From assembly GCA_026129095.1 (NCBI GenBank), contig JAHCIT010000015.1, positions 1-34,870 on the forward strand: DNA of 34,870 nucleotides, read 5' to 3'. Position numbers and translations under genes: made by a program. The notes under the pieces are model-generated. The model worked only from the letters and a program-made list of their open reading frames with translations. It was not told the DNA's origin and searched no databases. Numbering within the stretch: the first letter of the stretch is position 1; the number at the start of each line of letters is the position of its first letter. This DNA is from Deltaproteobacteria bacterium (lineage in GTDB: Bacteria; JAGRBM01; JAHCIT01). Below are positions 899 through 27,578 of the stretch, piece after piece.

Positions 899-1168
899 AT
901 GATTCCTCACATGAAGTGTGCGGAGAGCATACGGACTTTGCGAAGGCGGCTGGGACTCTCCCAGAAGGCCGTGGCCATCGAGGCGGACTTAAGACGGCAG
1001 ACGCTGTCTGGAATTGAATCCGGCCGGATCAACCCCACGAAGGTCGAAGCCGGAAAAATCGCAAAAGCTCTCTCCGTGCACACCCGTGAGGTGCTTGCAT
1101 GTCTACGGAATCAGCGTTCCCGTATCTGGACCAGCCGGAAGCAGCTGGACCGGAAGAAGAGACGATAG
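899..1168 (+). CDS. XRE/Cro-family helix-turn-helix regulator
   Basis: IRTLRRRLGLSQKAVAIEADLRRQTLSGIESGRINPT...KIAKAL is a typical HTH_3 pattern. The start could be ATG 911. Confidence 0.85.
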   Translation: MIPHMKCAESIRTLRRRLGLSQKAVAIEADLRRQTLSGIESGRINPTKVEAGKIAKALSVHTREVLACLRNQRSRIWTSRKQLDRKKRR

Positions 1169-2460
1169 AAGCGGACGAAACGGCCGCGGCCGCTGTGAGG
1201 GAACCGGTCAGGCCGTCCAGACCAGTTCCCACCGCGTCCCCGCTCACGCCGGAGGACGAGGAGGTGCTCCGCAAGATCGCCGAATCCCTCGGCGGTAACA
1301 CTGGTGGCAAGCTGTCCCTTCGCCTCCGGCGGTTCAGAAGGGGCGAGGGTCTGAAAAGCATCCGGGCAATTGCCCTGGAACGCTGGATGTTCGAGGACGG
1401 CTTTGATCTCGAAAAGGTGATCGGCGAGCACTATGGCGACGGCAAGTATCACTGGGAAATCCGGAACAGCGGGAAATATTTCAAGTCGGGCGTGTGCGAC
1501 ATCGAGACGTACGGCGCCTTTTCAGGCGACGACGAGGAAGATACGCAAGCTCCAGCGCCCGCCGGGGAACCTGTTCCTGTCGATCTTTCCGGCCTGACGT
1601 CCCGGATCAGGAGCGAGCTTCTGGCTGAACTGCGCCCCAGGGAAACGGCCCAGCCGCAGGTGGATATCGCCGGAATGGTCCGGTCGGCTCTCGAACCCGT
1701 GATCCGGGTTCTGGAATCGAAGGCGACGGAAAAGCAGTCGGATCCGTCCGTCGCGGCTGTTCTGGGACTTCTTTCCCAGCAGAACCAGACGCTGATGACA
1801 CTGATTGGCAAGGCACTGGAGACTCCCAGGGTGAATCCGGCGCCAGCGGCGGCCTCAGACCCGATCGATTCGTTTGGGAAGCTGCTAGACATAGCCAAAC
1901 AGCTCCAGCCGTCCATTTTCCCGATGCCTTCGATGACGGGTGGCAGCGATGACGACGGCTCCGGGGACGATGACGACGAGTTTTTACCGGAATCCCCTGA
2001 ACCTGTTCCAGCCGCATCTCTCGGCCAGCAGTTCCTGGACACGATCAAGGGTTCGGTTGGCCGGGTAGCTGAACAGTTCGTGCTCACAGGTGAAAAGGCC
2101 CTGACCGGCGGCCTTGCGGGTGGTCCTGAAACAGCGGGGCTTTCCGTCGCACCGCCGGCCGCAGCCGTACACCCTGCCCCGTCGGCCCCTCAGAACCCCG
2201 CCACGGTAGTCGAGGCCCTCCTGTGCGGCGTCGAGCAGTGCGTGAAAGAAAAGCGCCCTGTGAGTGAATTCCTGACGGCGCTCACCGCCGGAACGACCCC
2301 GGAGTTCATGGCATCCGCCCGTCAGCTCACCGTCGAGCAGATCACATCGTTTGGAGCGTCCATCGGACGCCCCGACCTCACCGAGCGGTTCCGCCAGCCC
2401 GACGTCCAGAAATACCTCGGCGAGGCCCTGTCGGCCCTCAAGGGAGGTGACGGCAAATGA
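1099..2460 (+). CDS. Hypothetical virus-associated protein (small N-terminal globular domain, then Pro/acidic low-complexity and helical regions)
   Basis: 453-aa ORF with RBS GAGGTG at 1088-1093, motif IGEHYGDGKYHWEI, and a stop overlapping the next ATG (ATGA). Confidence 0.75.
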   Translation: MSTESAFPYLDQPEAAGPEEETIEADETAAAAVREPVRPSRPVPTASPLTPEDEEVLRKIAESLGGNTGGKLSLRLRRFRRGEGLKSIRAIALERWMFEDGFDLEKVIGEHYGDGKYHWEIRNSGKYFKSGVCDIETYGAFSGDDEEDTQAPAPAGEPVPVDLSGLTSRIRSELLAELRPRETAQPQVDIAGMVRSALEPVIRVLESKATEKQSDPSVAAVLGLLSQQNQTLMTLIGKALETPRVNPAPAAASDPIDSFGKLLDIAKQLQPSIFPMPSMTGGSDDDGSGDDDDEFLPESPEPVPAASLGQQFLDTIKGSVGRVAEQFVLTGEKALTGGLAGGPETAGLSVAPPAAAVHPAPSAPQNPATVVEALLCGVEQCVKEKRPVSEFLTALTAGTTPEFMASARQLTVEQITSFGASIGRPDLTERFRQPDVQKYLGEALSALKGGDGK

Positions 2461-3599
2461 ACATTCCTGAAATCCCGGTCCGGCAGATCCCCTACAACAT
2501 GTCCCGGGGCATGAAGGGGACGAAGATCACGCTCGCGCACATGGCGCTGGTCATGTGGAAGACGAGCCATTCGACGCGGCTGGCGAGGTTCGCCCGCGAC
2601 GTGATTTCGCGGGCGAAGATCAGGGAGTACGACCAGCTTGGCGAGATCACGGCGCTCTTCTCATGGGTCCGGCGGAACGTCCGGTATACCCGCGACCCCC
2701 AGAACCACGAATGGCTACAAACGCCGCTCGTCACGGTCCTGTTCGGACACGGGGACTGCGACTGCCAGGCGATGCTTCTGGGGACGCTGCTGATGAGCAT
2801 TGGCTATCCAGTGCGTATCGTCATTGTCGGAAACGCGCCGGACCAGTTCTTTCACGTCTTTCTCGCCGCCCGTTACCGGAAGGACGGACAGGACCAGTGG
2901 ATTGATCTTGATCCCACGGTGGCTGACGGACTTGGCCTCAAGCGCATCTTCGCCGCACGGCGGGAGTTCGACGTCCTGGAACAGGGTGCACTGAAGGAAA
3001 CGAGCACAGCCCCAGCCTACGGCCTCGGGAACTTTCTCGGCGACCTGTTCGCCGGGCCGCCGAAGGTGATCTCGATGAAGGTAGGCTCAAAGGAAATCCG
3101 TGTGCCTTGGAGTGTCCGGGATATTCCGTATGTCTCGGACGCCGAATGGGACAACTGGTTCCGCCAGCTCAAGGAGACCCTGACTCCGGAGGAGATCCTC
3201 CAGGTCGAGGCAGGATTCGACCGGCTGGAGCAGGCAGGGGCGCTTTCGAATAAATCGCCTGAACTCTCCGGCCTCTGGGACAAGGTGAAAAAGGGGCTCA
3301 AGAAAGTGGCCGCCCCGCTGGCCGTCGTCGCCGCTCCCATCACCGGCGGCGCGTCGATCGCGGCCCTTGCAGCCTACAAGGGCGGGAAGGCGATGGCGGG
3401 GAAGAAGGCCGCCGCGCCCGGCCGGGCTTCCAAGGCGCCGCGCACGCCGAAGGCTCCCAAAGCCAGGGCGGAGGTCAAGGCCGACACCCCGGATGCCATT
3501 CCGGCCGTGAAGGCCGAAGCCGGCCGTAACTACCTCCTCATGGGCGGGGGGCTCGCCGCTGCCGGCGGCCTTGCGTACGTCGCCACCCGGGACTCCTGA
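2457..3599 (+). CDS. Transglutaminase-like (papain-fold Cys-His-Asp) protein with a C-terminal membrane anchor
   Basis: WVRRNVRYTRDP, GDCDCQAMLL (Cys ~2757), FFHVF (His ~2853) and WIDLDPT (Asp ~2910); hydrophobic C-terminus YLLMGGGLAAAGGLAYVATR. Confidence 0.85.
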   Translation: MNIPEIPVRQIPYNMSRGMKGTKITLAHMALVMWKTSHSTRLARFARDVISRAKIREYDQLGEITALFSWVRRNVRYTRDPQNHEWLQTPLVTVLFGHGDCDCQAMLLGTLLMSIGYPVRIVIVGNAPDQFFHVFLAARYRKDGQDQWIDLDPTVADGLGLKRIFAARREFDVLEQGALKETSTAPAYGLGNFLGDLFAGPPKVISMKVGSKEIRVPWSVRDIPYVSDAEWDNWFRQLKETLTPEEILQVEAGFDRLEQAGALSNKSPELSGLWDKVKKGLKKVAAPLAVVAAPITGGASIAALAAYKGGKAMAGKKAAAPGRASKAPRTPKAPKARAEVKADTPDAIPAVKAEAGRNYLLMGGGLAAAGGLAYVATRDS

Positions 3600-3616
3600 A
3601 AGCGAAAACGTTCACG

Positions 3617-4567
3617 ATGAAGAATTCCCGCCCCGTCACGCTGTCAGTCCGGATCGGCCCCAGGTCGCTGGTGTTTCCATGGTCATCCGGCGCGCTTTCG
3701 CAAAAGTCTGACGGCGAGATCGATGACTGGCTCATGCGCCAGAATCTCTCGGCAGGGGAGCTGGGCACGCTGGCAGAGCTGTTCGGAAGGCTTTCGTGTC
3801 CGAACGAACTCACGCCGCTTGGCGATCCGAACCTGGGGCGCGTGAGCAAGGTGGCCCAACGGCGGCTCCCGCCGCCGGTGGCAAGGCAATTAAGACAGAT
3901 CCAGGCGAGCCGGAAGAAACTGATCGCCGAGCGGAAAGCGCTCGCAAAAGCCCGGTCAGCGGCGCAGGCCGCACAATCGGCCGCAGTGACTGCGCCGCCA
4001 CACGTTTCCCCGTCGCCCGTTTCACTGCCGCCCGCTTCGCCGACTCCGGTTGTTACGGCTGCGCCAGCAGCTGAGCCTCCCAAAAGCCTGGAACCCGTCG
4101 TGGAGCCGCTGATTCCGCCGGTGGAAAGACAGGCGACGATAGCACCGGCACAGTCGCCGGTTACCCAGACGGCTTTCGTTCCGGACTATCTGCCGCCGCC
4201 AGCCGTGCCGCAGGTCGTCGTGCAGGTTCCGCAGATGGTCCAGGCGTCCCCGGCGGCCACTGCGCCGGAGCCGCCTGGACAGGCAGTTTTTGCGCCGCCG
4301 GGCGCCGCCGCTCACGCCGTCCCTTCACCGGCCACGCCGCCAGTGCCCATTGTGCCGGTTCCGGCGGTTTATTCCACTCCAGCATATCGACCGCCGGTTT
4401 ATCCCTATCCGTTAACAGAAGATGACGGCGCGTGGGACGAGGAGGACTATTCCGGCGACTACGAGGAGTTTGGAAACACGGAGCCGCAAAAGACGGTCTT
4501 TGGGGAACTTCTCGCCGGAGCCGGTTTGCTCGGAATGCTCGCCTGGCTGATTGCGAGGAAAACATGA
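3617..4567 (+). CDS. Pro/Ala-rich protein with a C-terminal transmembrane anchor (putative virion membrane protein)
   Basis: 316 aa; long Pro-rich stalk, acidic patch, C-terminal LLAGAGLLGMLAWLIARKT; ATGA overlap with the next gene. Confidence 0.7.
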   Translation: MKNSRPVTLSVRIGPRSLVFPWSSGALSQKSDGEIDDWLMRQNLSAGELGTLAELFGRLSCPNELTPLGDPNLGRVSKVAQRRLPPPVARQLRQIQASRKKLIAERKALAKARSAAQAAQSAAVTAPPHVSPSPVSLPPASPTPVVTAAPAAEPPKSLEPVVEPLIPPVERQATIAPAQSPVTQTAFVPDYLPPPAVPQVVVQVPQMVQASPAATAPEPPGQAVFAPPGAAAHAVPSPATPPVPIVPVPAVYSTPAYRPPVYPYPLTEDDGAWDEEDYSGDYEEFGNTEPQKTVFGELLAGAGLLGMLAWLIARKT

Positions 4568-5217
4568 TCCGGCTCATCACATCGGCAGTGGGACGTCTGG
4601 CCGACACGAAGGCCAGGATCGTGCTGTTGCTCCGGAACCAGTCGGTTCTGGCCCGGCAGACGCAGCGGATCGGGGAGTTTGCCAGACGTCATCCGGAAAT
4701 CCGCGTGGACTGGCTCGCCTACGGCACCGGGATCAGGGAGCTTGAGAGCAGGATCGACAGGATCATTGCCGACGAGACGGCCCTGAGGACTGACTTGAAA
4801 ACCTGGATCGACCGCAACTTCGGCTCCGAACCGGCCGTGAAGATCGATCTGGAGCCGCTCGGCATCCGGAACCTCTCTGGCGAGCTTCCCCTGGAGCCGC
4901 TTCTCAATCTCGGCGACGGCACCGTCACCTCGCTCGCCGGGCGGATATTCGATCTCCAGAGCCGGGTTCGAACAGCACTGGCTCTCATCGACAGCCTGCA
5001 GCACTCGCACGCGGAGACGCTCCGCCGGGTGCGGGAAGTCGTTGCTGGGAAGCCTGAAATCCTCAAGGACCTGGACGGCGTCATCGCCGCCAACGAAGCC
5101 GACCGGATCACCGGCATGGGGACCGATCCGGGCATTTATATCCTGTCGGGCCTTGCCGCGTGGTTTTCGTGGAAACTCTACCGCTGGGCCTCGAAGCCGA
5201 AAGAGACAAGTGCATGA
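4564..5217 (+). CDS. Helical/coiled-coil protein with a C-terminal membrane anchor
   Basis: Start reassigned to ATG 4564 (GAGGAA upstream, ATGA overlap); heptad-like helices; C-terminal IYILSGLAAWFSWKLYRW followed by basic residues. Confidence 0.7.
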   Translation: MIRLITSAVGRLADTKARIVLLLRNQSVLARQTQRIGEFARRHPEIRVDWLAYGTGIRELESRIDRIIADETALRTDLKTWIDRNFGSEPAVKIDLEPLGIRNLSGELPLEPLLNLGDGTVTSLAGRIFDLQSRVRTALALIDSLQHSHAETLRRVREVVAGKPEILKDLDGVIAANEADRITGMGTDPGIYILSGLAAWFSWKLYRWASKPKETSA

Positions 5218-5807
5218 AGCCGTATCCGGTCATGGAAGAGAAGGCGGAAGTGGTGCGGATGAATCCGGCAGATGCTCTCGCGCCGTCTGCTGCCGCTGAC
5301 AAAACGCCGGTCTCGCCGCCCCGGAAGGCCGCGAAAACGCGCGTGGGTGCGAACGTCCAGCTCTCGCTCATCGGGCTTCTCAAGGGGCTCGTCTACGTGG
5401 ACGGATACCACCGGCAGATATCCTACACCCCGAAGCGGGCGGTCCTCGTCTGTCAGGCTCCGAACAGGAAACTTGTCTTTGCCTACGGCGCAAGGCCGTC
5501 GAAACTTCCGCACGCGGCCATCTCGTCCGTTGTCCTCTCGAACTTCCAGGAGTTCAACGGCTTCCCGGTCCGCCGGATTCTGGATTCGGTCACGACCCGG
5601 AAATATGGCCAGACGAAATACCTCGGCCAGCTCACCGATATCGTCTACTGGTCGGACAAGTGCATTGACCCCGCAAGCTGCCGTTCGGCGGCCGACTATC
5701 ACCACAGGTTTGAGCCTGAATTTCCCAGGCTTTTCGTCAATCCCGGCGAGCTGCTCCTTCTCGAAGGAGGTTCGTACACCATCACCCGCCGGGGCATCGC
5801 CGGCTGA
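5214..5807 (+). CDS. Hypothetical virus protein with an internally duplicated beta-rich domain
   Basis: Start reassigned to ATG 5214 (ATGA overlap); RMNP near the N-terminus; C-terminal LGQLTDIVYWSDK...YHHRF...LLLEGGSYTITRRGIAG. Confidence 0.7.
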   Translation: MKPYPVMEEKAEVVRMNPADALAPSAAADKTPVSPPRKAAKTRVGANVQLSLIGLLKGLVYVDGYHRQISYTPKRAVLVCQAPNRKLVFAYGARPSKLPHAAISSVVLSNFQEFNGFPVRRILDSVTTRKYGQTKYLGQLTDIVYWSDKCIDPASCRSAADYHHRFEPEFPRLFVNPGELLLLEGGSYTITRRGIAG

Positions 5808-5822
5808 AGCGTAGACGCTTCA
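5805..5822 (+). other. Short hairpin over the stop codon
   Basis: TGAAGCGT-AG-ACGCTTCA, a perfect 8-bp inverted repeat with no U-tract. Confidence 0.35.
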
Positions 5823-5884
5823 CCCAGTTGGCTGGCGAAGCCCGGAGAACCAACCACTAATCACCCCTGAAAAGGAAACCCGCC

Positions 5885-7015
5885 ATGCCCAGCAAGAAGT
5901 CCCGCAAGAACCCCGCCCCGCTCGTTGGGAGCGTCATTGCCAATCCGGCCCTCTACACCAAGCGCCTCAAGGGAGGCGAGAAGGTCTATTTCAACGTTGG
6001 GCAGAACGCGAAGGTCGAGCGGAGCCAGACCCGGCCGCAGTATATCATCGTGACAGCACCACAGGACGCTCCCGGGCGGCCGAAAATGGCGCGCCGCCGC
6101 CCCCCGGCACCGCCCCCTCCGGCCCCGGTGCAGCCGGCTCCTGTGACGCCCCGCCCCGCGCAGCCTCGTCCCATGGCCCCACGCCCCGCACCTGGAGCAC
6201 GGCCCAGGGCAAAGCAATCGAAATCGCACAAAAAGCACCGTCGCCCCAAGCCGCCCTCGCCTGCAACAAGCTACCGTCCGCCGTTCCCGCCCTTTACCCG
6301 GCCTTCGGAACAGACGCGCCAGAACCCGCTCTTTGGCGGCGGCGATAGCGGAGCTGGCGAGATGGCGAAAACCGCCGGCGAGGCCTTGATGGTATTCGTG
6401 GCCCTGGGGCTCGGCATCCCGCTCGTGAAGCGGGTCCTTTTGAACGTCCTCAGGAAACCCGAGGCGGGGCCGGATGGAAAGCCGACGGTCGTTTCGCACG
6501 CCATCCAGGCGGGTCTTGCGGCCATCGCCTTCGGCGCGGCCGGGAAGGCGATAAAGGACTCCACGCTGAAGACTCTCGTCCAGGGAGCAGCCGTGGCGAC
6601 GGCGGTGGCCCCGGCCGTCAATCAGCTCATCGAAAAGATAAAACCCGGTGCGGGGCTGAGGCTCCTTGGGGATCCGGCCGATTCTGCTCCCATCAGCCTC
6701 AATTTCAATGTCGATCCGCTGCCGCTCACCGAAGGCCTTTCGGCTGACCTCCAGGACCTGGATACGAATCCCGCCATCGACCGGATGCTGACGGAAAAGG
6801 CCGCCGATCTGGGCGCTCCGCAGGTGGCCCCGGCCGGTGAGCCGCTGTTCCGCGGACTTGGTTCTCCGCAGGTCGCCCCCGCCAGTGAACCCCTTTTTCG
6901 CGGTCTAGGAGAAGCCGAAGAAAGGCTTCTTGACCCGGCCGACACCGATCCCGCTGGTCCCACATCCATTGCAGCCAGTGAGCCGCTCCATCTCGGGGCG
7001 CTCTACATCAACTGA
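5885..7015 (+). CDS. Basic Pro/Arg-rich membrane protein immediately upstream of the capsid gene (putative core/membrane protein)
   Basis: RBS AAGGA; basic N-terminal half with RKNP and RQNP; about three Gly/Ala-rich hydrophobic helices; C-terminal repeats ending in LG. Confidence 0.75.
   Translation: MPSKKSRKNPAPLVGSVIANPALYTKRLKGGEKVYFNVGQNAKVERSQTRPQYIIVTAPQDAPGRPKMARRRPPAPPPPAPVQPAPVTPRPAQPRPMAPRPAPGARPRAKQSKSHKKHRRPKPPSPATSYRPPFPPFTRPSEQTRQNPLFGGGDSGAGEMAKTAGEALMVFVALGLGIPLVKRVLLNVLRKPEAGPDGKPTVVSHAIQAGLAAIAFGAAGKAIKDSTLKTLVQGAAVATAVAPAVNQLIEKIKPGAGLRLLGDPADSAPISLNFNVDPLPLTEGLSADLQDLDTNPAIDRMLTEKAADLGAPQVAPAGEPLFRGLGSPQVAPASEPLFRGLGEAEERLLDPADTDPAGPTSIAASEPLHLGALYIN
6809..6910 (+). repeat. 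48-nt (16-aa) intragenic tandem repeat, two full copies plus a partial
   Basis: LGAPQVAPAGEPLFRG / LGSPQVAPASEPLFRG / LG; units start at 6809, 6857 and 6905 and differ mostly at synonymous sites. Confidence 0.9.
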
Positions 7016-7043
7016 ACCACCCCAACCAAAGGAAACCACAGTC

Positions 7044-7877
7044 ATGAACGACACCGACAATCTCTACGGACAGCTCCACGGCCTCTACGGCGACGAAGGC
7101 ATGAGGGAGATCGAGCCTGAACTGGGTGCGATGCCCCCGGCCGAGCAGAAGAAGGTCGCCCGGCACCTGGTGCGCCAGGGGCGCCTCATGCGGCTAGCGG
7201 CCCGGAAAAGCGTCGCCGACGAGCAGAAGACAAGGCGCATCGGCGGCTTCGACGAGGAAAACGTCATTCGCGACTGGGCGCGCCGCAAGGGAATCCCCTT
7301 CGAGCGGCTCAAGATCGAGAACGTCCGGTGGTTCCACCGCCGGTATGTGGACATCGGGACTCCGGCGGGCCTCCAGACGTCGCGCTACGCCTTCTTCAGC
7401 GAGGTGCCCAAGCCCGGCGCCCAGGACACGAACTTCGACATGTGGGGCGAGTGGCCGCAGACGACGCTCGTTCTGCTCCGGGGGATCATGAGCCAGGTGC
7501 TCATCCACTCGCTCGGCGCGGCGCCGGTCGACCGGTCGGCCAGCGGCTACCTCTCGATGGTGCAGCGGTTTCTGCACCACGCGACGGTCTCCTACAAGGT
7601 GGACCAGTCGACGACGGTGACGCAGCTCCTGAAAAACCTGCCCCCGGCGGGCGGAGCCAACGTTGTGAATATCCGCGACGAGTCGAATGGCTATCCGGAG
7701 GCGAACAATCTCCGGACATTCAAGCGCCCCGTCGTGATCGAGGGCGGCATCCAGTACCTGATCGAGATGAACGTCGATACCGGCTCGTTCCATAACGGCG
7801 GCACGCCGGTCTATACCGACTGCGTCCTCGACACGGTCCTTGAGCTCGATGCCACCTGGATCCGCCAGGCCGGGTAA
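7044..7877 (+). CDS. Putative major capsid protein (single jelly-roll type)
   Basis: Start reassigned to ATG 7044 (AAGGAAACC upstream). Pattern FF...DTN...G...LRGI...NGYPEANN...PVVIEGG...LELDATWIR of alternating beta strands recalls capsid proteins of uncultured tailless viruses; central position in the operon. Confidence 0.6.
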   Translation: MNDTDNLYGQLHGLYGDEGMREIEPELGAMPPAEQKKVARHLVRQGRLMRLAARKSVADEQKTRRIGGFDEENVIRDWARRKGIPFERLKIENVRWFHRRYVDIGTPAGLQTSRYAFFSEVPKPGAQDTNFDMWGEWPQTTLVLLRGIMSQVLIHSLGAAPVDRSASGYLSMVQRFLHHATVSYKVDQSTTVTQLLKNLPPAGGANVVNIRDESNGYPEANNLRTFKRPVVIEGGIQYLIEMNVDTGSFHNGGTPVYTDCVLDTVLELDATWIRQAG

Positions 7878-7898
7878 CTGGCATTACAGCGCACCTTC

Positions 7899-7944
7899 TG
7901 GCGAACTGAGAAAAAACCCTCAGGGCTTTACCTCACGTTCGCCA
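7899..7944 (+). other. Intergenic stem-loop 1 after the capsid gene
   Basis: TGGCGAAC-TGAG (7899-7910) pairs with CTCA-C-GTTCGCCA (7932-7944); inner CCC-TCA-GGG. Confidence 0.7.
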
Positions 7945-7960
7945 CTCCCTCCCTCCTCCT

Positions 7961-8028
7961 GCCGGACCGGGCAGCGGACGCTCCGCTAGCCGCCCAAGAT
8001 GGGTGCAGCCTTCGCTGCCCGGTCCGGC
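7961..8028 (+). other. Intergenic stem-loop 2 (perfect 16-bp inverted repeat)
   Basis: GCCGGACCGGGCAGCG (7961-7976) is the exact reverse complement of CGCTGCCCGGTCCGGC (8013-8028); inner hairpin GCCCA-AGA-TGGGT. Confidence 0.85.
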
Positions 8029-8052
8029 CCCTCCTTACCAAGGAAACCGGTC

Positions 8053-8532
8053 ATGGACTTCACGCAGCAGTATCCAAAGTGGTTTGTGGACGAGTTCGAG
8101 AGGATCCGTGCGAAGCACGGCGCCCGGAAGATCATCCAGCCCTCGTTCCATCCGGCGGCTTTCACGGACCTTACCGGAACCTTCACGGCGGCGAGCGAGC
8201 ACAGCACCGTCGTGACGATCCCGCAGAAGGAGATTTTCGTGCTCTTCGGCTTCCGCTACGCCACGACGGACATGGAAAGAATGCTCCAGTACCCGTTCCG
8301 GATGAAGGTGAGCGATCCGAGCCGCCAGGAGGCCTTGCTGCCCAGCTACGTCTTCGCGCCGTCGGTCTGCTCGACGGCGGCGTTTTTCTCCCCGCTCATG
8401 GTCCCGGTGGAGTTACCTGGCAGTTCGATCCTCAAGATCGACATCAAGATGCCGGAAGGGCTTCCAGGCGGAAACGAATACATCCCGGAGATCGTCCTCT
8501 GCGGCGTCTCGCTGCTCGAAGGCCTGCTCTGA
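8053..8532 (+). CDS. Putative second/minor capsid protein (single jelly-roll-like)
   Basis: Start reassigned to ATG 8053 (AAGGAAACC upstream); 159 aa with about eight beta-like segments: VVTIP..FVLFGFRY..FRMKVSD..PLMVPVELPGSSILKIDI..EIVLCGV. Confidence 0.55.
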   Translation: MDFTQQYPKWFVDEFERIRAKHGARKIIQPSFHPAAFTDLTGTFTAASEHSTVVTIPQKEIFVLFGFRYATTDMERMLQYPFRMKVSDPSRQEALLPSYVFAPSVCSTAAFFSPLMVPVELPGSSILKIDIKMPEGLPGGNEYIPEIVLCGVSLLEGLL

Positions 8533-8547
8533 AAGGCATTTTCCCTG

Positions 8548-9348
8548 GTGAAAGTCACCTATCAGACGCTCGACTTCAGCAATCCCTCAGGCTCGCCAAA
8601 GCGCCTGACGCGGAAGCTCTATTTCCCGCGTGACAGCGTCATCTGCCGTCTCGTGACCGAGCCGGCCGGGCCGTATTCCGGGGGTGATTTCTTTCAGTTT
8701 AAGGAAGTGACGATCGGCGGGAAACCGGCGCTGACGCAACCTGCGGCTGGCTTAAGGATGCTGATGCCCGGCGCCGGCAATACGCCCATACACCTGCCGG
8801 TCAAGGGCGGCTATTCGCTCGAAATCACGTCGGACGTTCCGGGGCTGACGAAGGTGCAGATATATCTTGCCTGGCGGGACGCCGGTCTTGAAGAGGACTT
8901 CAGCCACGAGACGTTCTTCTACGTCGGCGAGTTCGTCGATATCTATGCCATCGAAGGGATGACGCGGTTTGTCTTCCAGCGGGACTACCGGTGGGACGGT
9001 CTCAGCTATCTGGTCGGCGGCGAGGACGGCACGAAGGCCTGGAAATCGGCCCGGTATCCCCATGCGATGGAACCCGGCATAAGGTCCGGAGGGGTATTTG
9101 CCAGCGCGGGCCATTTCCCCTCCGTCGCGCTCCCCATGCGGCTTTCCTGCCCTCCCGAGGAGTGGCGCACACCCTTCATGCAGGAAGCAAGTTTCGCCTC
9201 GCACCTGTCGTTCGGAAAGTTTCCCGTCCCGATCTTCACAAAGGCCGGGGTGGCGATCGATGGCAGGTTCGGTTTGCTCAACTTTTCCCTTTTCGACTTC
9301 CCCCACACCCTCGTCACCGTCGGGGAACATTTGACGGGAAGAATTTGA
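8548..9348 (+). CDS. Putative minor structural protein with two tandem jelly-roll-like units
   Basis: GTG start; the second half (RFVFQRDYRWDGLSY..PMRLSC..FPVPIFTKAGVAIDGRF..LVTVGEHL) parallels the 8053 protein. Confidence 0.5.
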   Translation: MKVTYQTLDFSNPSGSPKRLTRKLYFPRDSVICRLVTEPAGPYSGGDFFQFKEVTIGGKPALTQPAAGLRMLMPGAGNTPIHLPVKGGYSLEITSDVPGLTKVQIYLAWRDAGLEEDFSHETFFYVGEFVDIYAIEGMTRFVFQRDYRWDGLSYLVGGEDGTKAWKSARYPHAMEPGIRSGGVFASAGHFPSVALPMRLSCPPEEWRTPFMQEASFASHLSFGKFPVPIFTKAGVAIDGRFGLLNFSLFDFPHTLVTVGEHLTGRI

Positions 9349-9352
9349 GATC

Positions 9353-10321
9353 ATGAAAAGCCCACTGGTGATCTTTGGCGATGTGACCGGCGGAAGGTTC
9401 AAACATATTCCGTTCGGGACCCTCTGGAAGCTGCTCCGCGCCATCGATACGGAAATACTTACCGGCTACGCCTATGCCGACCTTCAGGACCATAGCCGCA
9501 CGCAGCTTCTGGACTTCGCCGTCCCGGTCGATTGCCACCTTTTCTGCCACGAGATCGAGCTGGATATCGCCTGCCGCGCCGGCCGGGCCGTGCGGATCGA
9601 CCTTTTCGCCGGCGAGGAGCAACTGCTGCCGGCCCGCTCGGCCTTTATTGGCGGCACTGGCATCCTGGGGATGCACGCGCTCGGGCCGGAAAAACTCTCG
9701 CTCAAGGTTCGCCGGATGCTGGCGCCGGGGACCAGGCTGAGGATTTTCGGGACCCCTTTCCCGCCCTATCGCCTGAGGTTCGGTGACACTCCACTGACGC
9801 CGCAGGGGAGTTTGCCCCAGTACGACGTCTATAATGCCGACGATCCGGTACTTGGGTCGCTATCGACGCCGTTTGAGATCCTCGACTGGTCGCCCGGCAC
9901 GCCCATACCCGCCGGCTGGCCTTTACCGCCGCTGGAGCAGCGGGTCTATTTCAAGGGCAAGGGCCGGATCACGTTTTTTGCGAACCTCACCCTGTCGGCA
10001 CCGGACCCTGGCGTCATCACGGCTGTCCAGGCCTACAGTCCGGACTTCCCCTACGAAAGCGTCATTAACGAAACCGTCATTGGCACGAACGTCAATCCCT
10101 GGACGAAGTCCGAACGAATGCTGACGGTGACGCCCCGGATGGAGCTTGCCGAGTATGCCTTCCGCGTTCATGGCGGCACGGGCTCCAGCCTCAACAATCT
10201 CAAAGTCTACTGCATTTTCCAGGAAGCGCCCCTGAACTGGGAAAACAGCGTCGTCATCAATGCCCGCATCCGCGGCACCCGCATCCCCCGCGACATCTTC
10301 AGGACCTTCGGCGAGCTATGA
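9353..10321 (+). CDS. Putative minor structural protein: jelly-roll-like unit with an inserted beta domain
   Basis: FAVPVDCHLFCHEI..VRIDLF..LLP..VRRMLAPGTRLRI, then an insert, then the final strand INARIRGTRIP. Confidence 0.5.
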   Translation: MKSPLVIFGDVTGGRFKHIPFGTLWKLLRAIDTEILTGYAYADLQDHSRTQLLDFAVPVDCHLFCHEIELDIACRAGRAVRIDLFAGEEQLLPARSAFIGGTGILGMHALGPEKLSLKVRRMLAPGTRLRIFGTPFPPYRLRFGDTPLTPQGSLPQYDVYNADDPVLGSLSTPFEILDWSPGTPIPAGWPLPPLEQRVYFKGKGRITFFANLTLSAPDPGVITAVQAYSPDFPYESVINETVIGTNVNPWTKSERMLTVTPRMELAEYAFRVHGGTGSSLNNLKVYCIFQEAPLNWENSVVINARIRGTRIPRDIFRTFGEL

Positions 10322-10965
10322 ACAACCAGTATGACCACCTGATACGCCAGTTCGCCACGCGGCCGGACTTCCCGCCCCATTTTGTCAAGGGAATGATCCA
10401 CGTGGAAAGCGCCTTCAGGGCGGACGCAAGGGGCCCGGGCGGCGAACTGGGTCTGATGCAGTTTCTCGCATCCACGGCGAAAACGCTCGGCGTGGATCAC
10501 GCGTCGCTCGTGAATCCCGAGGCGGCCATCAGGGCCGGAACCCGCTACATAGCCCAGATCATCGACAAGTACGTGACGCCGAACCTTAAGGTCCCCATTC
10601 ATCCGCAGCTCAGGATCAGGTTCGTGCAGTTTGCCTACAACGCCGGCCCTTTGTTCACGGTGAGGCTCCTGAAGCGCTTCGGGGCAGATGCCGCCACCCT
10701 GTCCAGTCCCGGCTCCTTCAATCGCATGGTTGACACGCTGAAGGGCGATCCGGATGTACTGCGGCTCCAGAAGCTCACCAGGGAGGCCGATTTTCTGGCC
10801 GCCCGGAAGAAGGTCGTGGAGCGGTATCAGTACTGGGCCGGGCAGTATGCGAAAGACTTCGGCACAAACCCCGGCGCGAACCCACCGGCAGCCGTCCAGG
10901 CCTCCATGCCCCTCATCCCGCTCGCCATCGTGGGAGCCGCCTATCTCATCTGGAAACGGAAATGA
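10318..10965 (+). CDS. Lytic transglycosylase (SLT domain) with a C-terminal membrane anchor
   Basis: IHVESAF (catalytic Glu), GLMQF, NPEAAIRAGTRYI and AYNAG motifs; C-terminal LIPLAIVGAAYLIWKRK. Confidence 0.9.
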   Translation: MNNQYDHLIRQFATRPDFPPHFVKGMIHVESAFRADARGPGGELGLMQFLASTAKTLGVDHASLVNPEAAIRAGTRYIAQIIDKYVTPNLKVPIHPQLRIRFVQFAYNAGPLFTVRLLKRFGADAATLSSPGSFNRMVDTLKGDPDVLRLQKLTREADFLAARKKVVERYQYWAGQYAKDFGTNPGANPPAAVQASMPLIPLAIVGAAYLIWKRK

Positions 10966-11267
10966 CCCCCATGACGGACCTGCTCGAAATCCTGAACTCC
11001 AAGGTGGCCGTCGGCCTCTTTTCTGGCCTCTTTTCGATCCTGGGCGTGCTGGTCGGAAGCTACGTGCGCAGCTTCACCGACGAGCGCATCGAGCAGAAAC
11101 TGAAGCCGCTGCTCGAACGTTTGTGGCAGATCGAATCGAAGATCGCCGAAATACTCCGCGACGTGGTCGAAATACGAAAAGGCCAGGAAACAATGGACGA
11201 TCACCGCCGCCGGATCGAACGCCTCGAGAACCGCTCCATGTCGTCAAACGGCAATCATCGCCCATAG
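10962..11267 (+). CDS. Small membrane protein with a coiled coil (holin-like or lysis accessory)
   Basis: One N-terminal TM helix, then heptads ending HRRRIERLE; located between two muralytic genes. Confidence 0.55.
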   Translation: MTPMTDLLEILNSKVAVGLFSGLFSILGVLVGSYVRSFTDERIEQKLKPLLERLWQIESKIAEILRDVVEIRKGQETMDDHRRRIERLENRSMSSNGNHRP

Positions 11268-11276
11268 GAGGTAACC

Positions 11277-11696
11277 ATGCCGGTCGTCATCAGTTTCAAG
11301 ACCGCCGCCCTGAATCCGGACCTCGCAAAAATCGACAGCCGCATCAAAGCGCTCATCTTCGAGGCGGCGGACTGGCTCGCCCGCCTGAATCTTTCCCTTA
11401 CCATCACCTGTTTGCTCAGGGACCGGGCGACGCAGGAGGCCATTTTTCAGAAAGCCCGAAGCATCGGCGCCAGGGAACCCATTCGCTCGCCGCACGAGGA
11501 CGGCCGGGCGGTGGATATTTCCATTAAAGGGTTTTCCGAAGAGATTATCACCGGGCTTGTGGATCACCTGAATGAAACTTTCCCCTACGAGGGAAACCGT
11601 CTTTATAAAACGGCCATCCGCCATGACGTGGGACAAGGCGACCACATCCATATCCAGGTGGCCCCGCCTGCGGGCCGCTGGGGAGTCGCTGCGTGA
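11277..11696 (+). CDS. Peptidase M15-type Zn metallopeptidase (endolysin-like)
   Basis: ITCLLR..., SPHEDGRAVDI (H-x6-D) and DHIHIQ (HxH) motifs; RBS AGGAGG. Confidence 0.85.
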   Translation: MPVVISFKTAALNPDLAKIDSRIKALIFEAADWLARLNLSLTITCLLRDRATQEAIFQKARSIGAREPIRSPHEDGRAVDISIKGFSEEIITGLVDHLNETFPYEGNRLYKTAIRHDVGQGDHIHIQVAPPAGRWGVAA

Positions 11697-12475
11697 GTCT
11701 GGGCGGTTTTTACATGCTGCCCGGCGAGTCCGGGCCATCTGGACCGTCTGGACGTATGCCGGAAAGTCTTGAGCTTTCCGGCCTTACCGACTGGCTCACT
11801 TCGCCGGTCGAGCAGACGAAAAGGCTTATATCCGAGCGGGCCGCCCAGAAGGCCAGGGAAGAGATACAGAAGAAGGAAAACGAGAAGGCCGAGTGGGAAC
11901 GGACCGGGCAGCCGTGGTCGAAGAAGGCAGACACTCTTCTCACGGCCGCCAAATGGGGCGTCATTACCATCCCCCTCGGTATCGTCGCCGTGTCTTTAAT
12001 GCCGCTTTTCAGGGGTGCTGGTACAGCACTTGGCGGAACCGGCGCGGCCCTCTCTGGCATCGGAGCCGCCACGAAGGAAAGTGCGGCTTCGGTGCAGGCG
12101 GCAAGAGAGTCCTTAACCCGCCGGAACCCGGCCAGTGTCCGGTACAGTGAAAAGTGGACGCTCCTCCGGCGGCTCGGAGACCGCTACTGGCAGCTCGCCG
12201 GCTCGCACCCGGGCAAAAGCCGGCAGCGGGAGTTTTTCCTTGGTGTGTCGGAAGGGATCCACGAGGCCTCCGAACTCGCCCGGACAGAAAATGCGCGCCG
12301 TTATCTCCGCCGCCGGGCATCGCCGAAGCTGAAAAGCCTTGCGAGGGGCCGTCTCGTGGCGGCCCGCCAGGGCAACAGCCTCCTCCGGAGCCGTCTGGAC
12401 GGACGCCACCGCGGCCTTCTCGTCGCCACGGCATTTCTTGCCGACCCTCAAGCGTCGTTCCCGGTCTTTGGCTGA
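11693..12475 (+). CDS. Membrane protein with a basic C-terminal domain after an RRNP motif
   Basis: GTG start overlapping the previous TGA; ELSGL motif, TM helix WGVITIPLGIVAVSLMPLF, Gly/Ala stretch, RRNP, Arg-rich tail. Confidence 0.65.
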   Translation: MSLGGFYMLPGESGPSGPSGRMPESLELSGLTDWLTSPVEQTKRLISERAAQKAREEIQKKENEKAEWERTGQPWSKKADTLLTAAKWGVITIPLGIVAVSLMPLFRGAGTALGGTGAALSGIGAATKESAASVQAARESLTRRNPASVRYSEKWTLLRRLGDRYWQLAGSHPGKSRQREFFLGVSEGIHEASELARTENARRYLRRRASPKLKSLARGRLVAARQGNSLLRSRLDGRHRGLLVATAFLADPQASFPVFG

Positions 12476-12526
12476 TGCCACGGACCGTCATCCCCTCAAC
12501 CACCACCAAAAGGAGTGTTTGCAAAC

Positions 12527-12760
12527 ATGGAAACCATCAAACCCGGCCTCAAGACATCCGAGGGCAGGCTCACGCTGATCGCCATCCTCGTGCCCATCCT
12601 GATGCCGGTCGTGAAGGCGATTTTCGGCAAGTTCGGCCTCCACCTCGACGTCGATGCCAGTACGGTGAGCACGGCGCTGCTCGCCAACGCCGGAGTGACC
12701 GGGGCCTATGCCGCCGGCCGCTCCTACGTGAAGGCCACGGCGATGAAGGTGCTGGAGTAG
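12527..12760 (+). CDS. Small two-TM holin-like protein
   Basis: Start reassigned to ATG 12527 (AAGGAG upstream); KPGLKTSEG resembles the KPGxKTSEF start of small phage membrane proteins; two hydrophobic helices. Confidence 0.55.
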   Translation: METIKPGLKTSEGRLTLIAILVPILMPVVKAIFGKFGLHLDVDASTVSTALLANAGVTGAYAAGRSYVKATAMKVLE

Positions 12761-12788
12761 TCAGAAAAGACGCGCTGCGGAGTAACCG

Positions 12789-13196
12789 ATGCTCTGGGAA
12801 CTTAACAGACTGACAAACGTGCGGCTCGGGCCTTCGAAGGTCTGGGTCTCGCCGGTTCATCGCATAAATTCCCTGATGATCCAGAGCTTCGGAACGGGAG
12901 CGGATTTCGATCAGTACAACTCCGGGCAGGTGGCCCTGGAAGGGACGAACTGGTCCTGGGCCGAGGCCGGTTTTGCCAGCGAGGCCGCCTGGAAAGCTTC
13001 ACAAGCTCCGCAGCGCGTCTGGCTTCCAATCGATATACCGTCCGGTACCCCGTGGGTATTTGATGGAACGCCGGCAAAGCTTGCCTGCTATCTCGACCGT
13101 CTGCCGAGGTTCATACGCCTGAGGGAAACCGGCACGCTCACCGCAGGTAATTTCATCGACCTCGCCATCCACGCGAGGCTCTTTGGCGACCGGTGA
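12789..13196 (+). CDS. Small beta-rich structural protein (penton/vertex-like, tentative)
   Basis: 135 aa, beta-rich, C-terminal PRFIRLRETG...IDLAIHAR; immediately precedes the spike-like genes. Confidence 0.4.
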   Translation: MLWELNRLTNVRLGPSKVWVSPVHRINSLMIQSFGTGADFDQYNSGQVALEGTNWSWAEAGFASEAAWKASQAPQRVWLPIDIPSGTPWVFDGTPAKLACYLDRLPRFIRLRETGTLTAGNFIDLAIHARLFGDR

Positions 13197-13206
13197 GACC
13201 GGCGAG

Positions 13207-13695
13207 ATGGGATTCCCCGGCAATGGCGCTGAAAACACCGGCGGGCGAATCCTCGTTCACCGGGAAACGCAAATAAGCTGGTCCACGGGGACCGGCACAA
13301 ACACAGGGCCCGACGGCTCGATCGACTGGGTGAAAACAAGTGGCCTCTACCGCCTCGTCTTCCACTGCGCCGTCATGCAGGCCACAGGCACCCACAACGC
13401 CATCACGATCCGGGTCCAGACCGGCCAGCCGCTCGTGGCCACCAATCGCCTCACAGGAGTCCGGCGGACGGTCGCCGCCGCAGGTGCGGCGTTCATGACC
13501 TGGACCAGGGGAGCGGCAGTTGTTCAGGGCGACTTTGCGGCCTTCGAGAGCGGAGATATCCAGATGTACGCGGACGAATTTCTCCTGACCCAGCGGCTTG
13601 GCGGCGGAACGGCCTTTGCTTTCCGCGCCGTCTCGACCGGCGGTTCGGGCTCCGGAATCGGAAACAGTTCTGGCTGGTGGCTTTTGCCGGTATAA
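13207..13695 (+). CDS. Putative spike/vertex protein A
   Basis: Start reassigned to ATG 13207; begins MGFPG; Gly/Thr-rich beta protein. Confidence 0.5.
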   Translation: MGFPGNGAENTGGRILVHRETQISWSTGTGTNTGPDGSIDWVKTSGLYRLVFHCAVMQATGTHNAITIRVQTGQPLVATNRLTGVRRTVAAAGAAFMTWTRGAAVVQGDFAAFESGDIQMYADEFLLTQRLGGGTAFAFRAVSTGGSGSGIGNSSGWWLLPV

Positions 13696-13700
13696 GAAAC

Positions 13701-14717
13701 ATGGGATTCCCTGGAACATCCGAAAATGCGGACGGCGGTGCGCCGGAACTGGACCTGGAAGAGGCCGGCGAGGCCGTGACGGTCGACTGGACGCTTTCCC
13801 ATAAACAGGCCGTCACGGCCGGTGTCGATACGGTCTTTTCGTTCATTGCGCCACCAGCTGCCGGATCCGATCTCACGCTCCGCATCCGGCGCGGCGCCAC
13901 TTCTCCCACGGCGCTCTATTTCCCCTCAAGCTGCCGGTGGCCGGGAGGTTTTTCACCCGTTTTCGACTTTTCCGGTCCGGACAATATCCAGCTCGTCCGC
14001 ATCTACTACGACGGAGTGAGCTATCACTGCCGGACGGTTGCGGGTTTAAAAAAACTCCCGCCCGGGGTGAACCTCGCCGGCTATAGCGAGACGCGGATAT
14101 CGTTTGGCTATCCGTCGCTTTCATTGAATGCCGGAACCGGCCCAAGCCGCATCGCCTTTCTCGTCTTCAACGAGGTTTATAACACCTTCCTCGGCCCTGT
14201 GGGCAGCATCAGTTTCGCCGGGCAGCCCATGACAAGGCTCGTTCCGCCGTCGGACGACTACCGGGGGCTCCAGGTCTTTTTTCAGGTAAACCCTCCATCA
14301 GGCCTCGGTTTCTTCACCTTCACCGGTTTCAGTACGGCTGGATACCTCCTCCAGGCGTTTGTCCTGACCGGCTTAAACCAGGCGAATCCCGTGGAAACCG
14401 ACGACAGCCGGGTGGTGGCTGACGACTATGCCAATCCTTTCCACATCGGGACCATCCCGCCCTCATCCGGTTCTGACCGGTTTTTCCTGAACATCGCTTC
14501 CAGTTTCAACGGCGCCTACGGCGGTCCCTACAGTCCCGTCGATGGCCAGACGGTGAAAATCTTCGAGCAGGCTTTCCCGGGCCCCGAGCATTACCGCCGG
14601 CAGATTTGCGGCCTTCTGGGCCCCATCAATCCTCCCGGCTACCGCGAGACCGTCTGGCAGGGCTTAAGCGGCTTCGGAACCCGCATCGAGCGCCGGATTC
14701 TCCTGAACCCGGCCTGA
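13701..14717 (+). CDS. Putative spike/receptor-binding protein B
   Basis: Start reassigned to ATG 13701 (MGFPG). Contains VDW..Q..F...P..G..LTLRI...FP...RWPGG..P...IYYDG, a module seen in phage fibre/spike proteins, followed by a beta-sandwich-like head. Confidence 0.6.
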   Translation: MGFPGTSENADGGAPELDLEEAGEAVTVDWTLSHKQAVTAGVDTVFSFIAPPAAGSDLTLRIRRGATSPTALYFPSSCRWPGGFSPVFDFSGPDNIQLVRIYYDGVSYHCRTVAGLKKLPPGVNLAGYSETRISFGYPSLSLNAGTGPSRIAFLVFNEVYNTFLGPVGSISFAGQPMTRLVPPSDDYRGLQVFFQVNPPSGLGFFTFTGFSTAGYLLQAFVLTGLNQANPVETDDSRVVADDYANPFHIGTIPPSSGSDRFFLNIASSFNGAYGGPYSPVDGQTVKIFEQAFPGPEHYRRQICGLLGPINPPGYRETVWQGLSGFGTRIERRILLNPA

Positions 14718-14738
14718 ACGGCCCGAAAGGATTCAGCC

Positions 14739-15947
14739 ATGTCCGAACCGTTACTGGAATGCCGCATCGACCGAAACCAGTGGATCTGGAGCGGAAAGCT
14801 TCTGGGCAAAAAGGCCGCCGACAGGCTTGCCGGGCGGATGTTCGAGACCTGGCAAAGATTGAATGCCATGTGGCCAGGGATGCCTCAGAACGTGGAACGG
14901 ATGATCGTAATGGAGGAGGAAAAACTCCGGATTGTGCTGACGAAGCCGCCAAGGCGGTTCTCTTGGGGAGACGATCAAATCGGCATCGTGAACGGCTTCG
15001 ACGTGACGGTGGTGACCGAAGACGGGATATTCACCCCGCAGCAGCGGGCGGCCTATCTGCGGCTCTACGGTCAATGGCACCTTCGCCGGGCAATCGATGT
15101 GGCGCACACCGGCGGCCACTCGATGGCATTGATCCCAAGCCATGAGCCTTATGAAGCGAGTGACGAGGACCTGGAACTGGCGAAGCAGGCCGTGGGCTCT
15201 CTCTTTGCGGCAAAAGACCCGGACATGGCACTGGAAGTCTGCCCTCCCAGCGGAGAATACGAGGAGCAGTTCCCATCGAGGCGTCCGGATCCAGGGCTAA
15301 TCGAGCGCGACATTCTGGCGGCGCGGGCACTCTTGCCGTCAGTCGAAAAGGTGCTGTCCGGCAAGGAATCGCTTCGCCTCATGGAGCGAATCGAGGTGCG
15401 TCTCGCCTTCAGCACCCATCATGCCGCCCGGATCATCGAAGTCGCCCGTTCCATCGCCGCTCTCGACAGGGAAACGATCATCAGCCCGGCGCACCTCGCT
15501 GAAGCAGTACAGTACGCCCCGCCGGAGTGGCGCGGCCGGAAGAACCCCGGCGATGACGACGGATTCGACGGCTTCTGGGGCAAACCGGTCAGCGTCTATA
15601 CGCGGGCGCAGGCAATCGCCGACGGGACGCTCGTGGATCTGTCGGCAATCGTTCCCGACGTCTGCCTCCAGCACTACAAATACCCCATAGCCTGCACGGC
15701 CGCCGTCTGGGCTATCATCGACGCCGCCGTCCGCAGCAAGCACCACATGAACAGCGTTGCCGGAATCGTCCACGACATCCTCTGGATGAGCCGCGTCTAC
15801 AGGCGCCAGCTTTCGCCCGATACCGTCATCACGCGCGTGGCCATTACCGGCGCGGGCAGGAAGAAAGTCTACGGCTTCAAGTTAGTTGCCGGACCGGGCG
15901 ACGACGCCGGGCCCGTCATCACGATCATGCTGCCCGGGGAGGACTAG
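14739..15947 (+). CDS. Fusion: degenerate ComM/YifB (Mg-chelatase-like) homolog plus a DUF6573-like domain
   Basis: YGQWHLRRAIDVAHTGGHSMALI and RIIEVARSIAALD..ISPAHLAEAVQY match ComM motifs, but the Walker A is missing. After RKNP come SVYTRAQAIADGTLVD..AVW..DILWM..GPGDD..PVITIMLPGED. Confidence 0.7.
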   Translation: MSEPLLECRIDRNQWIWSGKLLGKKAADRLAGRMFETWQRLNAMWPGMPQNVERMIVMEEEKLRIVLTKPPRRFSWGDDQIGIVNGFDVTVVTEDGIFTPQQRAAYLRLYGQWHLRRAIDVAHTGGHSMALIPSHEPYEASDEDLELAKQAVGSLFAAKDPDMALEVCPPSGEYEEQFPSRRPDPGLIERDILAARALLPSVEKVLSGKESLRLMERIEVRLAFSTHHAARIIEVARSIAALDRETIISPAHLAEAVQYAPPEWRGRKNPGDDDGFDGFWGKPVSVYTRAQAIADGTLVDLSAIVPDVCLQHYKYPIACTAAVWAIIDAAVRSKHHMNSVAGIVHDILWMSRVYRRQLSPDTVITRVAITGAGRKKVYGFKLVAGPGDDAGPVITIMLPGED

Positions 15948-15949
15948 TT

Positions 15950-17203
15950 ATGGAATATGTTAACCCTGCCCGACCTTTGCTCATTTATCGGGTCATTGGC
16001 GGCGACTGGGTCTGGGGCGGCGCTCTGGCCGCCAACGCCAACAGGACAAAGGCCGACGAGGCCGCCGCGTGGGTAAAGTTCGCCTGGGATGGGGTTACGC
16101 AGGCGGAACCAGGTGAAATAGCCGGGAATATCCGGTCCATCGCCCTCGTTGCCGAAGGCGAGATCGAGATGGGCGTGGAAGGGCTCCGCCGGCCGAGACA
16201 AATCAACTACGTCCCCGGCCTCAAGATCCGCCTGATACCGGTGGCCACGGCCCACGCAGCGCCCGCGTTGGAAGCTTATCGGTCTGTCGTGGAACGCGGC
16301 GGATGGGCTCCCCCTGACGACACTCCAGCCCGAACGCTTTACCGTGCACTGGAGCGTGTTTCTCACAGCGCGGTCCACTCGAAAGAGGACGCCAACCGCG
16401 CCATGCGGCTCTCGAACGTGGCCTTTGAACGGGACGGCAGCGACATCCTCGTACTCACGACCGACGGCCACCGGCTCACGCTCCACCGGCTGGTGGGCTT
16501 TGCAAAGTACGTGAGCCGGTTACCGAAAGCCGATACGATCGTGCCCATCGCGGAGCTGAAAGCGCTCCTGCCGAAGCTGAAAACCGCCCGCAATGTCCAG
16601 ATCGACCTGTCCAGTCACGAGGGCGAACCGCAGGTCTATAATTACGGCTTCCAGGGGAGCTACGGCCCGGCGCTCGCCGATGCTTTTAGCGGCGCCATCG
16701 TCATCGATGGGGAGAGTTTTCATATCCCTGTTGTGAAGCACGAGTTTCTTGAATGGCGGCATGTTTTTCCGAAGCCTGAATGGAACGTGACGGTTGATTC
16801 TGGCGAACTGCTCGCCGCCATTTCGGACCTTTATGCCAGATGGTCCGAGACGATGAAAAACCGCCCCAAGCGCTCAGGGAAGAAAGAGCCTTCCGGGCGG
16901 CTCCAGTTCGACAGGAAGTCGGTACACATCGAGATCACGCCGGATATTCCGGATAAACCCGACACCTGCTCCGCCACTCTTTTGTCGTCCGGCATCAGCC
17001 AGAACCGGCCTGCGAGGTTTTACATGAACTTCCGGTACCTGAGGGACGCCTTGAGGCTGCTTCACGGACCGGTGGTGATCGCCGGCGAGAACGGCGGCAC
17101 GAACTCCATAGACGGCAATTCCTATCTCGTGAAGCCGGTAAGCCTTCTCGATCCTTCCGGACCTACCGAAATCCTCATCATGCCCATGCATCCGCCCCGC
17201 TAG
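15950..17203 (+). CDS. Protein with a DNA polymerase III beta-clamp-like C-terminal region
   Basis: LTTDGHRL, FLEWRHVFP, MNFRYLRDAL and ILIMPM parallel the ATDGHRL, YPDYxRVIP, FNxxYLLDAL and YxxMPM motifs of DnaN domains II-III; the N-terminus is unrelated. Confidence 0.7.
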   Translation: MEYVNPARPLLIYRVIGGDWVWGGALAANANRTKADEAAAWVKFAWDGVTQAEPGEIAGNIRSIALVAEGEIEMGVEGLRRPRQINYVPGLKIRLIPVATAHAAPALEAYRSVVERGGWAPPDDTPARTLYRALERVSHSAVHSKEDANRAMRLSNVAFERDGSDILVLTTDGHRLTLHRLVGFAKYVSRLPKADTIVPIAELKALLPKLKTARNVQIDLSSHEGEPQVYNYGFQGSYGPALADAFSGAIVIDGESFHIPVVKHEFLEWRHVFPKPEWNVTVDSGELLAAISDLYARWSETMKNRPKRSGKKEPSGRLQFDRKSVHIEITPDIPDKPDTCSATLLSSGISQNRPARFYMNFRYLRDALRLLHGPVVIAGENGGTNSIDGNSYLVKPVSLLDPSGPTEILIMPMHPPR

Positions 17204-17222
17204 AACGTAAAAGGAGTTCGCC

Positions 17223-27575: not shown

Positions 27576-27578
27576 CGG

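Follow-up and report, generated by a model that had tools for sequence, protein, structure and literature searches.

An Arg-x-Asn-Pro motif at predicted module joins in a provirus-like element of a deltaproteobacterial contig

The provirus-like block and its RxNP sites

The window analysed here is a 34,870-nt stretch of contig JAHCIT010000015.1 (GCA_026129095.1; positions 1-34,870, forward strand) from a deltaproteobacterium, and it holds a block of virion and cargo genes that we read, from its sequence, as a temperate phage with no tail, likely with a membrane, and lacking a packaging motor. The tetrapeptide Arg-x-Asn-Pro (RxNP) recurs in its proteins; it is under protein-level selection and, by sequence comparison, sits at the joins of swappable modules. 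An earlier note on this DNA had taken RxNP for a tag that lets non-structural cargo be made as polyproteins and carried in the particle. The features concerned are as follows.

899-17684 (+): provirus-like block, with virion and cargo genes, of a phage that is tailless and likely contains a membrane; gene order common to G002:C37, G005:C67 and L029
1828-1839 (+): RVNP in gene 1099-2460, a doubtful member; strict in one of two homologues, being kept in L028 (71% identical) and absent in L012 (23%)
2457-3599 (+): transglutaminase-fold protein (PF01841, E 3e-8) that has Cys-His-Asp motifs and, at its C-terminal end, hydrophobic segments; candidate for the maturation protease
5214-5807 (+): core protein with a short RxNP leader and a conserved C-terminal domain, fold unknown (16-sequence alignment, nine invariant columns)
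5256-5267 (+): RMNP tag, strict RxNP in 14 of 16 homologues (x = M, A, P, S, R, I)
5885-7015 (+): protein with a basic stalk (residues 10-147, net +23) and a membrane segment (hydrophobic, 168-186), directly before the capsid gene
5903-5914 (+): RKNP tag opening an NP-hydrophobic-NP peptide; strict in six of seven homologues, the seventh having KKNP
6317-6328 (+): RQNP tag lying after the basic stalk and before the membrane segment; seven of seven homologues
7044-7877 (+): predicted single jelly-roll major capsid protein (AlphaFold pLDDT 75; modelled part 7047-7874)
11693-12475 (+): membrane carrier, RRNP, then a swappable C-terminal domain; L003 has the same N-terminal part fused to DUF6573
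12119-12130 (+): RRNP seam, three of three homologues; swap breakpoint
14739-15947 (+): multi-module cargo-like protein (small N-module, ComM/Mg-chelatase C-terminal part, RKNP, DUF6573), from Pfam and homologue comparison
15537-15548 (+): RKNP seam, three of three homologues
15950-15967 (+): MEYVNP, a degenerate form of the tag at the N-terminus of a sliding-clamp-like protein; NP in three of four homologues, Arg in one of four
17223-17684 (+): RadC, untagged in the window; an RKNP leader is gained in the RadC of L012

The genes run, all on the + strand, from a helix-turn-helix (HTH) gene and gene 1099 through the transglutaminase-fold gene, two membrane-anchored genes, 5214 (the core gene) and 5885 to the capsid gene 7047; behind it lie three unknown genes, a lytic transglycosylase, small membrane and peptidase-like genes, 14739, the sliding-clamp-like gene and RadC. 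Contigs of run X1 with a depth of about 45-58 span 927-17678 and a depth-26 contig continues past that (depth not being equal to copy number). A capsid-profile search found syntenic copies of the block in four of five genomes from the same order, whereas 55 other genomes gave none. On the 34.4-kb contig G002:C37 the block is accompanied by a primase, a helicase and a serine recombinase, and a Walker A scan of this contig gave the helicase as the sole credible match, the only other being one off-gene frame. No Pfam ATPase was found among the genes of the window, where the element may be incomplete; G002:C37 showed no terminal repeats, and no full tRNA was found in the four loci scanned. Hydrophobic anchors are numerous in the element's proteins, and a membrane is therefore supposed.

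The capsid fold was predicted from a 12-row alignment, the single-sequence fold being poor, and the best structural matches of the model were SPMV (Z 8.4) and SPV1 (Z 8.2), middling values, with root-mean-square deviations of 3.2-3.4 over 127 residues. Capsid profiles connect the near and distant groups weakly (E 5e-4 to 0.02). A search for a second, paralogous capsid protein with the capsid profile gave no significant second match in L003 or L012; genes 7999, 8548 and 9353 are without structure models. The Cys-His-Asp motifs of the transglutaminase-fold protein are kept in its homologues. No RxNP occurs in the window protein or among nine such proteins checked. An IMG/VR scan with the protein returned no locus, and one with its alignment five unrelated tailed phages.

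The six RxNP tetrapeptides that had been reported all translate in frame on the + strand within long open reading frames (ORFs) of five proteins, and the MEYVNP at 15950 likewise translates on that strand. A seventh, RINP at 1025-1036 (+) inside the HTH gene, had been overlooked. It is probably an HTH turn typical of the family and not a tag, Xre HTHs often having NP at this place; a host regular-expression search for HTH proteins found none, and RVNP is present in the HTHs of L012 and L028. RVNP at 1828-1839 probably also lies outside the tag system. Host predicted proteins (crude ORF calls) contain 186 RxNP in 1.12 million residues, against which the element has 7 in 5,488 residues where 0.91 are expected (Poisson p 5e-5). 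The absence of RxNP from the right half of the window, as originally observed, holds (0 in 5,512 residues) and says little because about 0.9 would be expected there at the host rate.

RxNP ranks first of the 8,000 possible A-x-B-C patterns in the element, with Q-x-A-P nearly equal; since so many patterns are possible and the motif was picked post hoc, the excess in the window alone is not significant after correction. This suits an origin at the DNA level, as a recombination or restriction site, or by chance in Arg/Pro-rich proteins of GC-rich genes, as does the fact that six window sites all read G-AAY-CC. The relatives, however, argue otherwise on both counts. The codons at 76 RxNP sites include all six for Arg, both for Asn and all four for Pro, with 18 different residues at x, and 11 relatives contain 53 RxNP where composition-preserving shuffles within each protein yield 5.9. 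Sites 1025 and 1828 excepted, an origin of this kind is largely refuted, and we give it hardly any credence.

RxNP in relatives and at module joins

The 11 relatives, with hand-picked genes, were found through capsid or core-domain genes and not through RxNP, and the distant members by three IMG/VR DNA-pattern scans whose target was the C-terminal domain of 5214. Among the hits of these scans, non-members made up 4 of 7 and 4 of 12, and members 4 of 4; the 8 of 23 that were unrelated were dropped. IMG/VR scans that used capsid or core patterns brought up no relative. The distant members share an order in which membrane-anchored genes are followed by a basic protein with the core domain at its end, a basic membrane protein and a capsid-like gene, with a transglutaminase-fold gene upstream in most.

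In 10 of the 11 relatives no more than 8 of 500 shuffles attained the observed count of RxNP, L038 having no RxNP, and the eight distant relatives alone gave 35 against 4.4. The core and pre-capsid proteins, those of the window included, contain 32 RxNP against 2.0 in shuffles; in the same set RxDP (1), RxQP (2) and RxSP (3) stay at shuffle level, Arg two residues before the NP is 3.8-fold enriched, and Ala or Ser after the Pro about 2.4-fold. In the G002 provirus, the virion and cargo half holds 11 RxNP in 5,588 residues and the 11 replication-side genes tested none in 3,357. The proposal to count the motif in homologous elements against the host proteome, extended here to shuffles, thus bore out both its enrichment and its positional conservation in the relatives. 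The elements being kin, these counts overstate independence.

A broader mark, any basic residue followed by Asn and a small residue, was rejected: after basic-Asn, Pro alone is enriched (7.4-fold; Gly, Ala, Ser and Thr about 1), L040 excepted. The pre-capsid protein of L040 (10798-12204) has RRRN followed by T, G or A in place of NP as its punctuation. G-(L/M/I)-G, tried as a second address on the understanding that the earlier note implied a first tag, gave 87 against 63, with GAG equally enriched, and was not established.

The motif is densest in the core and basic membrane genes before the capsid gene. The two exceptions to the RMNP tag among the 16 core homologues are one KRNP and one record beginning within the domain. 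The C-terminal domain of 5214 also terminates the NP-punctuated basic polyproteins of distant relatives, whose core proteins carry 6-11 NP marks with mostly basic pieces between them; neither protein nor domain gave a PHROG, PDB or usable ESM Atlas match. In 5885, RQNP at residue 145 does stand, as first described, between basic stalk and membrane helices: it ends the +23 stalk, the hydrophobic segment follows, and the tags at 5903 and 6317 flank the stalk. Both NPs of its N-terminal peptide are invariant in seven of seven homologues. This NP-x-hydrophobic-NP peptide (about 12 residues; window 5903-5947) is conserved in L002, L003, L033, L045, L047, L050 and, at residues 41-58, in gp44 of SSIP-1 (Salisaeta icosahedral phage 1), and may act either as a docking strand or as a peptide that is released. 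A 48-nt tandem duplication also lies within gene 5885 (6809-6904), with joints there in contigs of other runs, which suggests that the repeat varies in copy number.

Among the cargo-like genes, the two domain boundaries previously noted were both found. In 11693, RRNP at residue 143 separates a hydrophobic segment (88-106) from a +14 domain, and in 14739, RKNP (residues 267-270) separates Pfam Mg_chelatase_C (209-259) from DUF6573 (284-402). The match of L003 to window 11693 stops on the Pro of RANP/RRNP, and its DUF6573 match begins one residue on; in L012, an insert of about 125 residues lies immediately behind the RKNP of the 14739 homologue. In unrelated genomes, none of six DUF6573 proteins has an upstream RxNP. 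The small N-module (hydrophobic, with W-x-W-x-G) opens both 14739-14930 and 15950-16170 and is re-inserted after RKNP in L012. Homologues of 15950 have RENP (L003), SLNP (L061), LSNP (L029) or no such tag (L012). Leaders are also over-represented, 11 of 60 RxNP sites lying within the first 20 residues against 4.6 expected, and tags at residues 2-9 are found in SSIP-1 gp41 (MRENP) and in the RadC and MNT-like leaders of L012. One provirus has two similar gene pairs (L012:16876-17723 and L015:16760-17693), each with a nucleotidyltransferase-like gene, by our own reading, followed by a HEPN-like gene; the first gene of the cargo-end pair has an RHNP leader, its paralogue elsewhere has none, and both HEPN genes are untagged. 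The view that the tag marks non-structural cargo thus stands for the domain fusions and the viral context, but not for the distribution, which is densest before the capsid gene and patchy on RadC, DUF6573 and the clamp-like protein.

The density of RxNP in very basic proteins would suit a DNA-binding or turn-forming linker, akin to the SPKK or AT-hook elements of basic chromatin proteins, with the swaps reflecting a flexible joint; Asn-Pro favours turns. Against this, RxDP and RxSP, which form equivalent turns, show no enrichment, and RxNP is also present in acidic surroundings (SSIP-1 gp43, window 15537) and in leaders added to RadC. We regard such a linker as improbable.

In the cultured relative SSIP-1, gp34, annotated as structural, matches the transglutaminase-fold protein of the window (E 2e-7; blastp E 2e-12), and the core domain of 5214 weakly matches the last 165 residues of gp43, beginning at RENP (E 0.0013 among 57 proteins). 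SSIP-1 gp43 has methylase and ParB domains. RENP occurs in 2 of the 13 SSIP-1 proteins annotated as structural (gp41, at residues 2 and 254, and gp43, at residue 2153) and in 2 of the 44 others. The capsid profile of the window did not match the SSIP-1 capsid proteins, which, according to PMC6356626, are of two types.

Close versions of the block (capsid 87-94% identical) lie in G001, G002 and L029, where the flanks differ and include a JAB gene, a type I restriction subunit and a TPR-like gene; from this pattern, block 899-17684 may be mobile or domesticated. Contig C15 of G000 holds a second, diverged virion block (capsid 74% identical), and its C16 and the end of C23 hold homologues of the repressor, primase, helicase and serine recombinase; no replication genes adjoin the window block. 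Left of the element, at the contig start, is a Prok-JAB gene (273-770), possibly the end of a defence operon. To its right, 17883-34477 encodes a 3,230-residue FG-GAP/PKD/Kelch surface protein, three membrane proteins (one with a PMT_2 match) and a 743-residue PKD/beta-helix protein, all host-like and free of RxNP.

A possible role in recruitment and cutting

Our best explanation, to which we give modestly better than even credence, is that RxNP is, in a family of likely membrane-containing phages with predicted single jelly-roll capsids, a conserved protein-level mark opening swappable modules, which likely both recruits them to the DNA core and serves as a cut site. RxNP would recruit modules to the assembling core, and a virion protease would cut them apart at the mark. 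The conserved Cys-His-Asp transglutaminase-fold protein is the best candidate for this protease, with the core domain as the alternative. Basic pieces such as the +23 stalk between 5903 and 6317 would compact the genome in the absence of a packaging motor; modules that resemble enzymes (DUF6573, RadC, clamp-like) and an antitoxin-like one would join by acquiring the tag or by fusing behind the membrane carrier, and would leave the particle together with the DNA. Virion location, recruitment, cleavage, protease and delivery are all points that we infer.

Recognition is favoured by the leaders near the N-terminus, which have nothing useful to release, and cutting by the distant core proteins with their one mark per module. 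The leaders at residues 2-9, and the conserved NP-x-hydrophobic-NP peptide, which recurs in very distant members including SSIP-1 (gp44), would suit docking alone, in which RxNP or NP-hydrophobic-NP binds a scaffold (the inner capsid face, a membrane protein or the core domain) and the repeats provide avidity. Yet the mark stands at each join, also where a membrane carrier in front of it would by itself ensure packaging (12119; the L003 fusion), which argues for cutting. Docking without cutting we think rather unlikely. The capsid targeting sequence (CTS) of phage T4 combines targeting and removal, and recruitment with cutting is likewise our best model here.

Several observations weigh against recruitment with cutting. 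The related elements are not independent samples; L038 and L067 share the gene order and core domain with no strict RxNP, and the L031/L032/L046 group, outside the shuffle test, is poor in it (1, 2 and 0; crude ORF calls). The split in SSIP-1 is weak (3 RxNP in 5,709 residues of structural protein, 2 in 7,394 residues of the rest): gp43, with 2,319 residues and many domains, has a single RxNP, the structural protein gp40 lacks it, and gp42 carries one but is not among the proteins annotated as structural. The DUF6573 of L012 is left without a tag of its own after the insertion, the window RadC is untagged, and the tag of the clamp-like protein is degenerate. Finally, the transglutaminase-fold gene was not seen in the examined parts of L038, L040 and L050, and papain-fold enzymes seldom cut before proline.

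More broadly, these elements may represent an undescribed, widespread family of tailless membrane phages with a motor-free core made from Asn-Pro-punctuated polyproteins and a transglutaminase-fold protease of new specificity, in which gain of the tag turns a protein into injected cargo; we advance this only tentatively. It is largely an open question by what means tailless membrane phages that lack a packaging ATPase compact their DNA and select their internal proteins, and a four-residue code would explain both. If true, the tag would amount to a plug-and-play code for protein delivery and would indicate an unusual protease specificity; to our knowledge it would be the shortest capsid-loading tag. 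We found no description of RxNP in the literature searched, subscription papers falling mostly outside that search. The model is directly testable in SSIP-1.

Comparison with known systems

SSIP-1 resembles the element in its transglutaminase-fold virion protein, weakly homologous core domain, RENP motifs and, it seems, similar gene order, but differs in its two types of capsid protein and in a structural RadA/KaiC-like ATPase, gp40. In adenovirus (pVII, pX) and African swine fever virus (pp220, pp62), a virion cysteine protease cleaves basic core precursors at short motifs; these, however, are eukaryotic double-jelly-roll viruses with Gly-based sites and clan CE proteases. The window capsid model has the single jelly-roll fold of the Helvetiavirae/Singelaviria (Halopanivirales), but their FtsK-HerA packaging ATPase was not found in the element. 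SPV1 (Portogloboviridae) is described in PMC8812541 as lacking a packaging ATPase. The element would fit it in that none was found there and in the predicted capsid, the SPV1 single jelly-roll being among the two best structural matches, whereas SPV1 has an archaeal host and no sequence-level link was seen. We know of no RxNP-like motif in the Portogloboviridae.

The CTS of the T4 internal proteins IPI-III is cut by gp21; according to PMC9026906, it directs unrelated proteins, basic or anti-defence, into the core and is then removed. RxNP would share with it a short N-terminal peptide for targeting and removal. T4, however, is a tailed HK97-fold phage whose propeptide of 10-19 residues is cut after Glu, whereas RxNP has four residues, is also repeated inside polyproteins, belongs to a predicted jelly-roll virus and has a putative function. 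The polyvalent proteins of phages and conjugative elements are fusions of shuffled conflict domains (RadC, ParB, methylase), predicted to be packaged and sometimes processed, as with P1 DarA/DdrB (Iyer et al. 2017, PMC5512222). They are matched by the at least two shuffled conflict domains per chain in 14739, its L003 and L012 variants and SSIP-1 gp43, and the build of L040 fits as well. They differ in coming from portal-terminase phages, in MPTase processing and in having no Asn-Pro seam in the passages of PMC5512222 consulted; no portal-terminase, conjugative or MPTase features were found among the window genes with Pfam and PHROGs. Thus, while it belongs to neither, the RxNP seam resembles both the T4 CTS and the polyvalent proteins in its proposed working.

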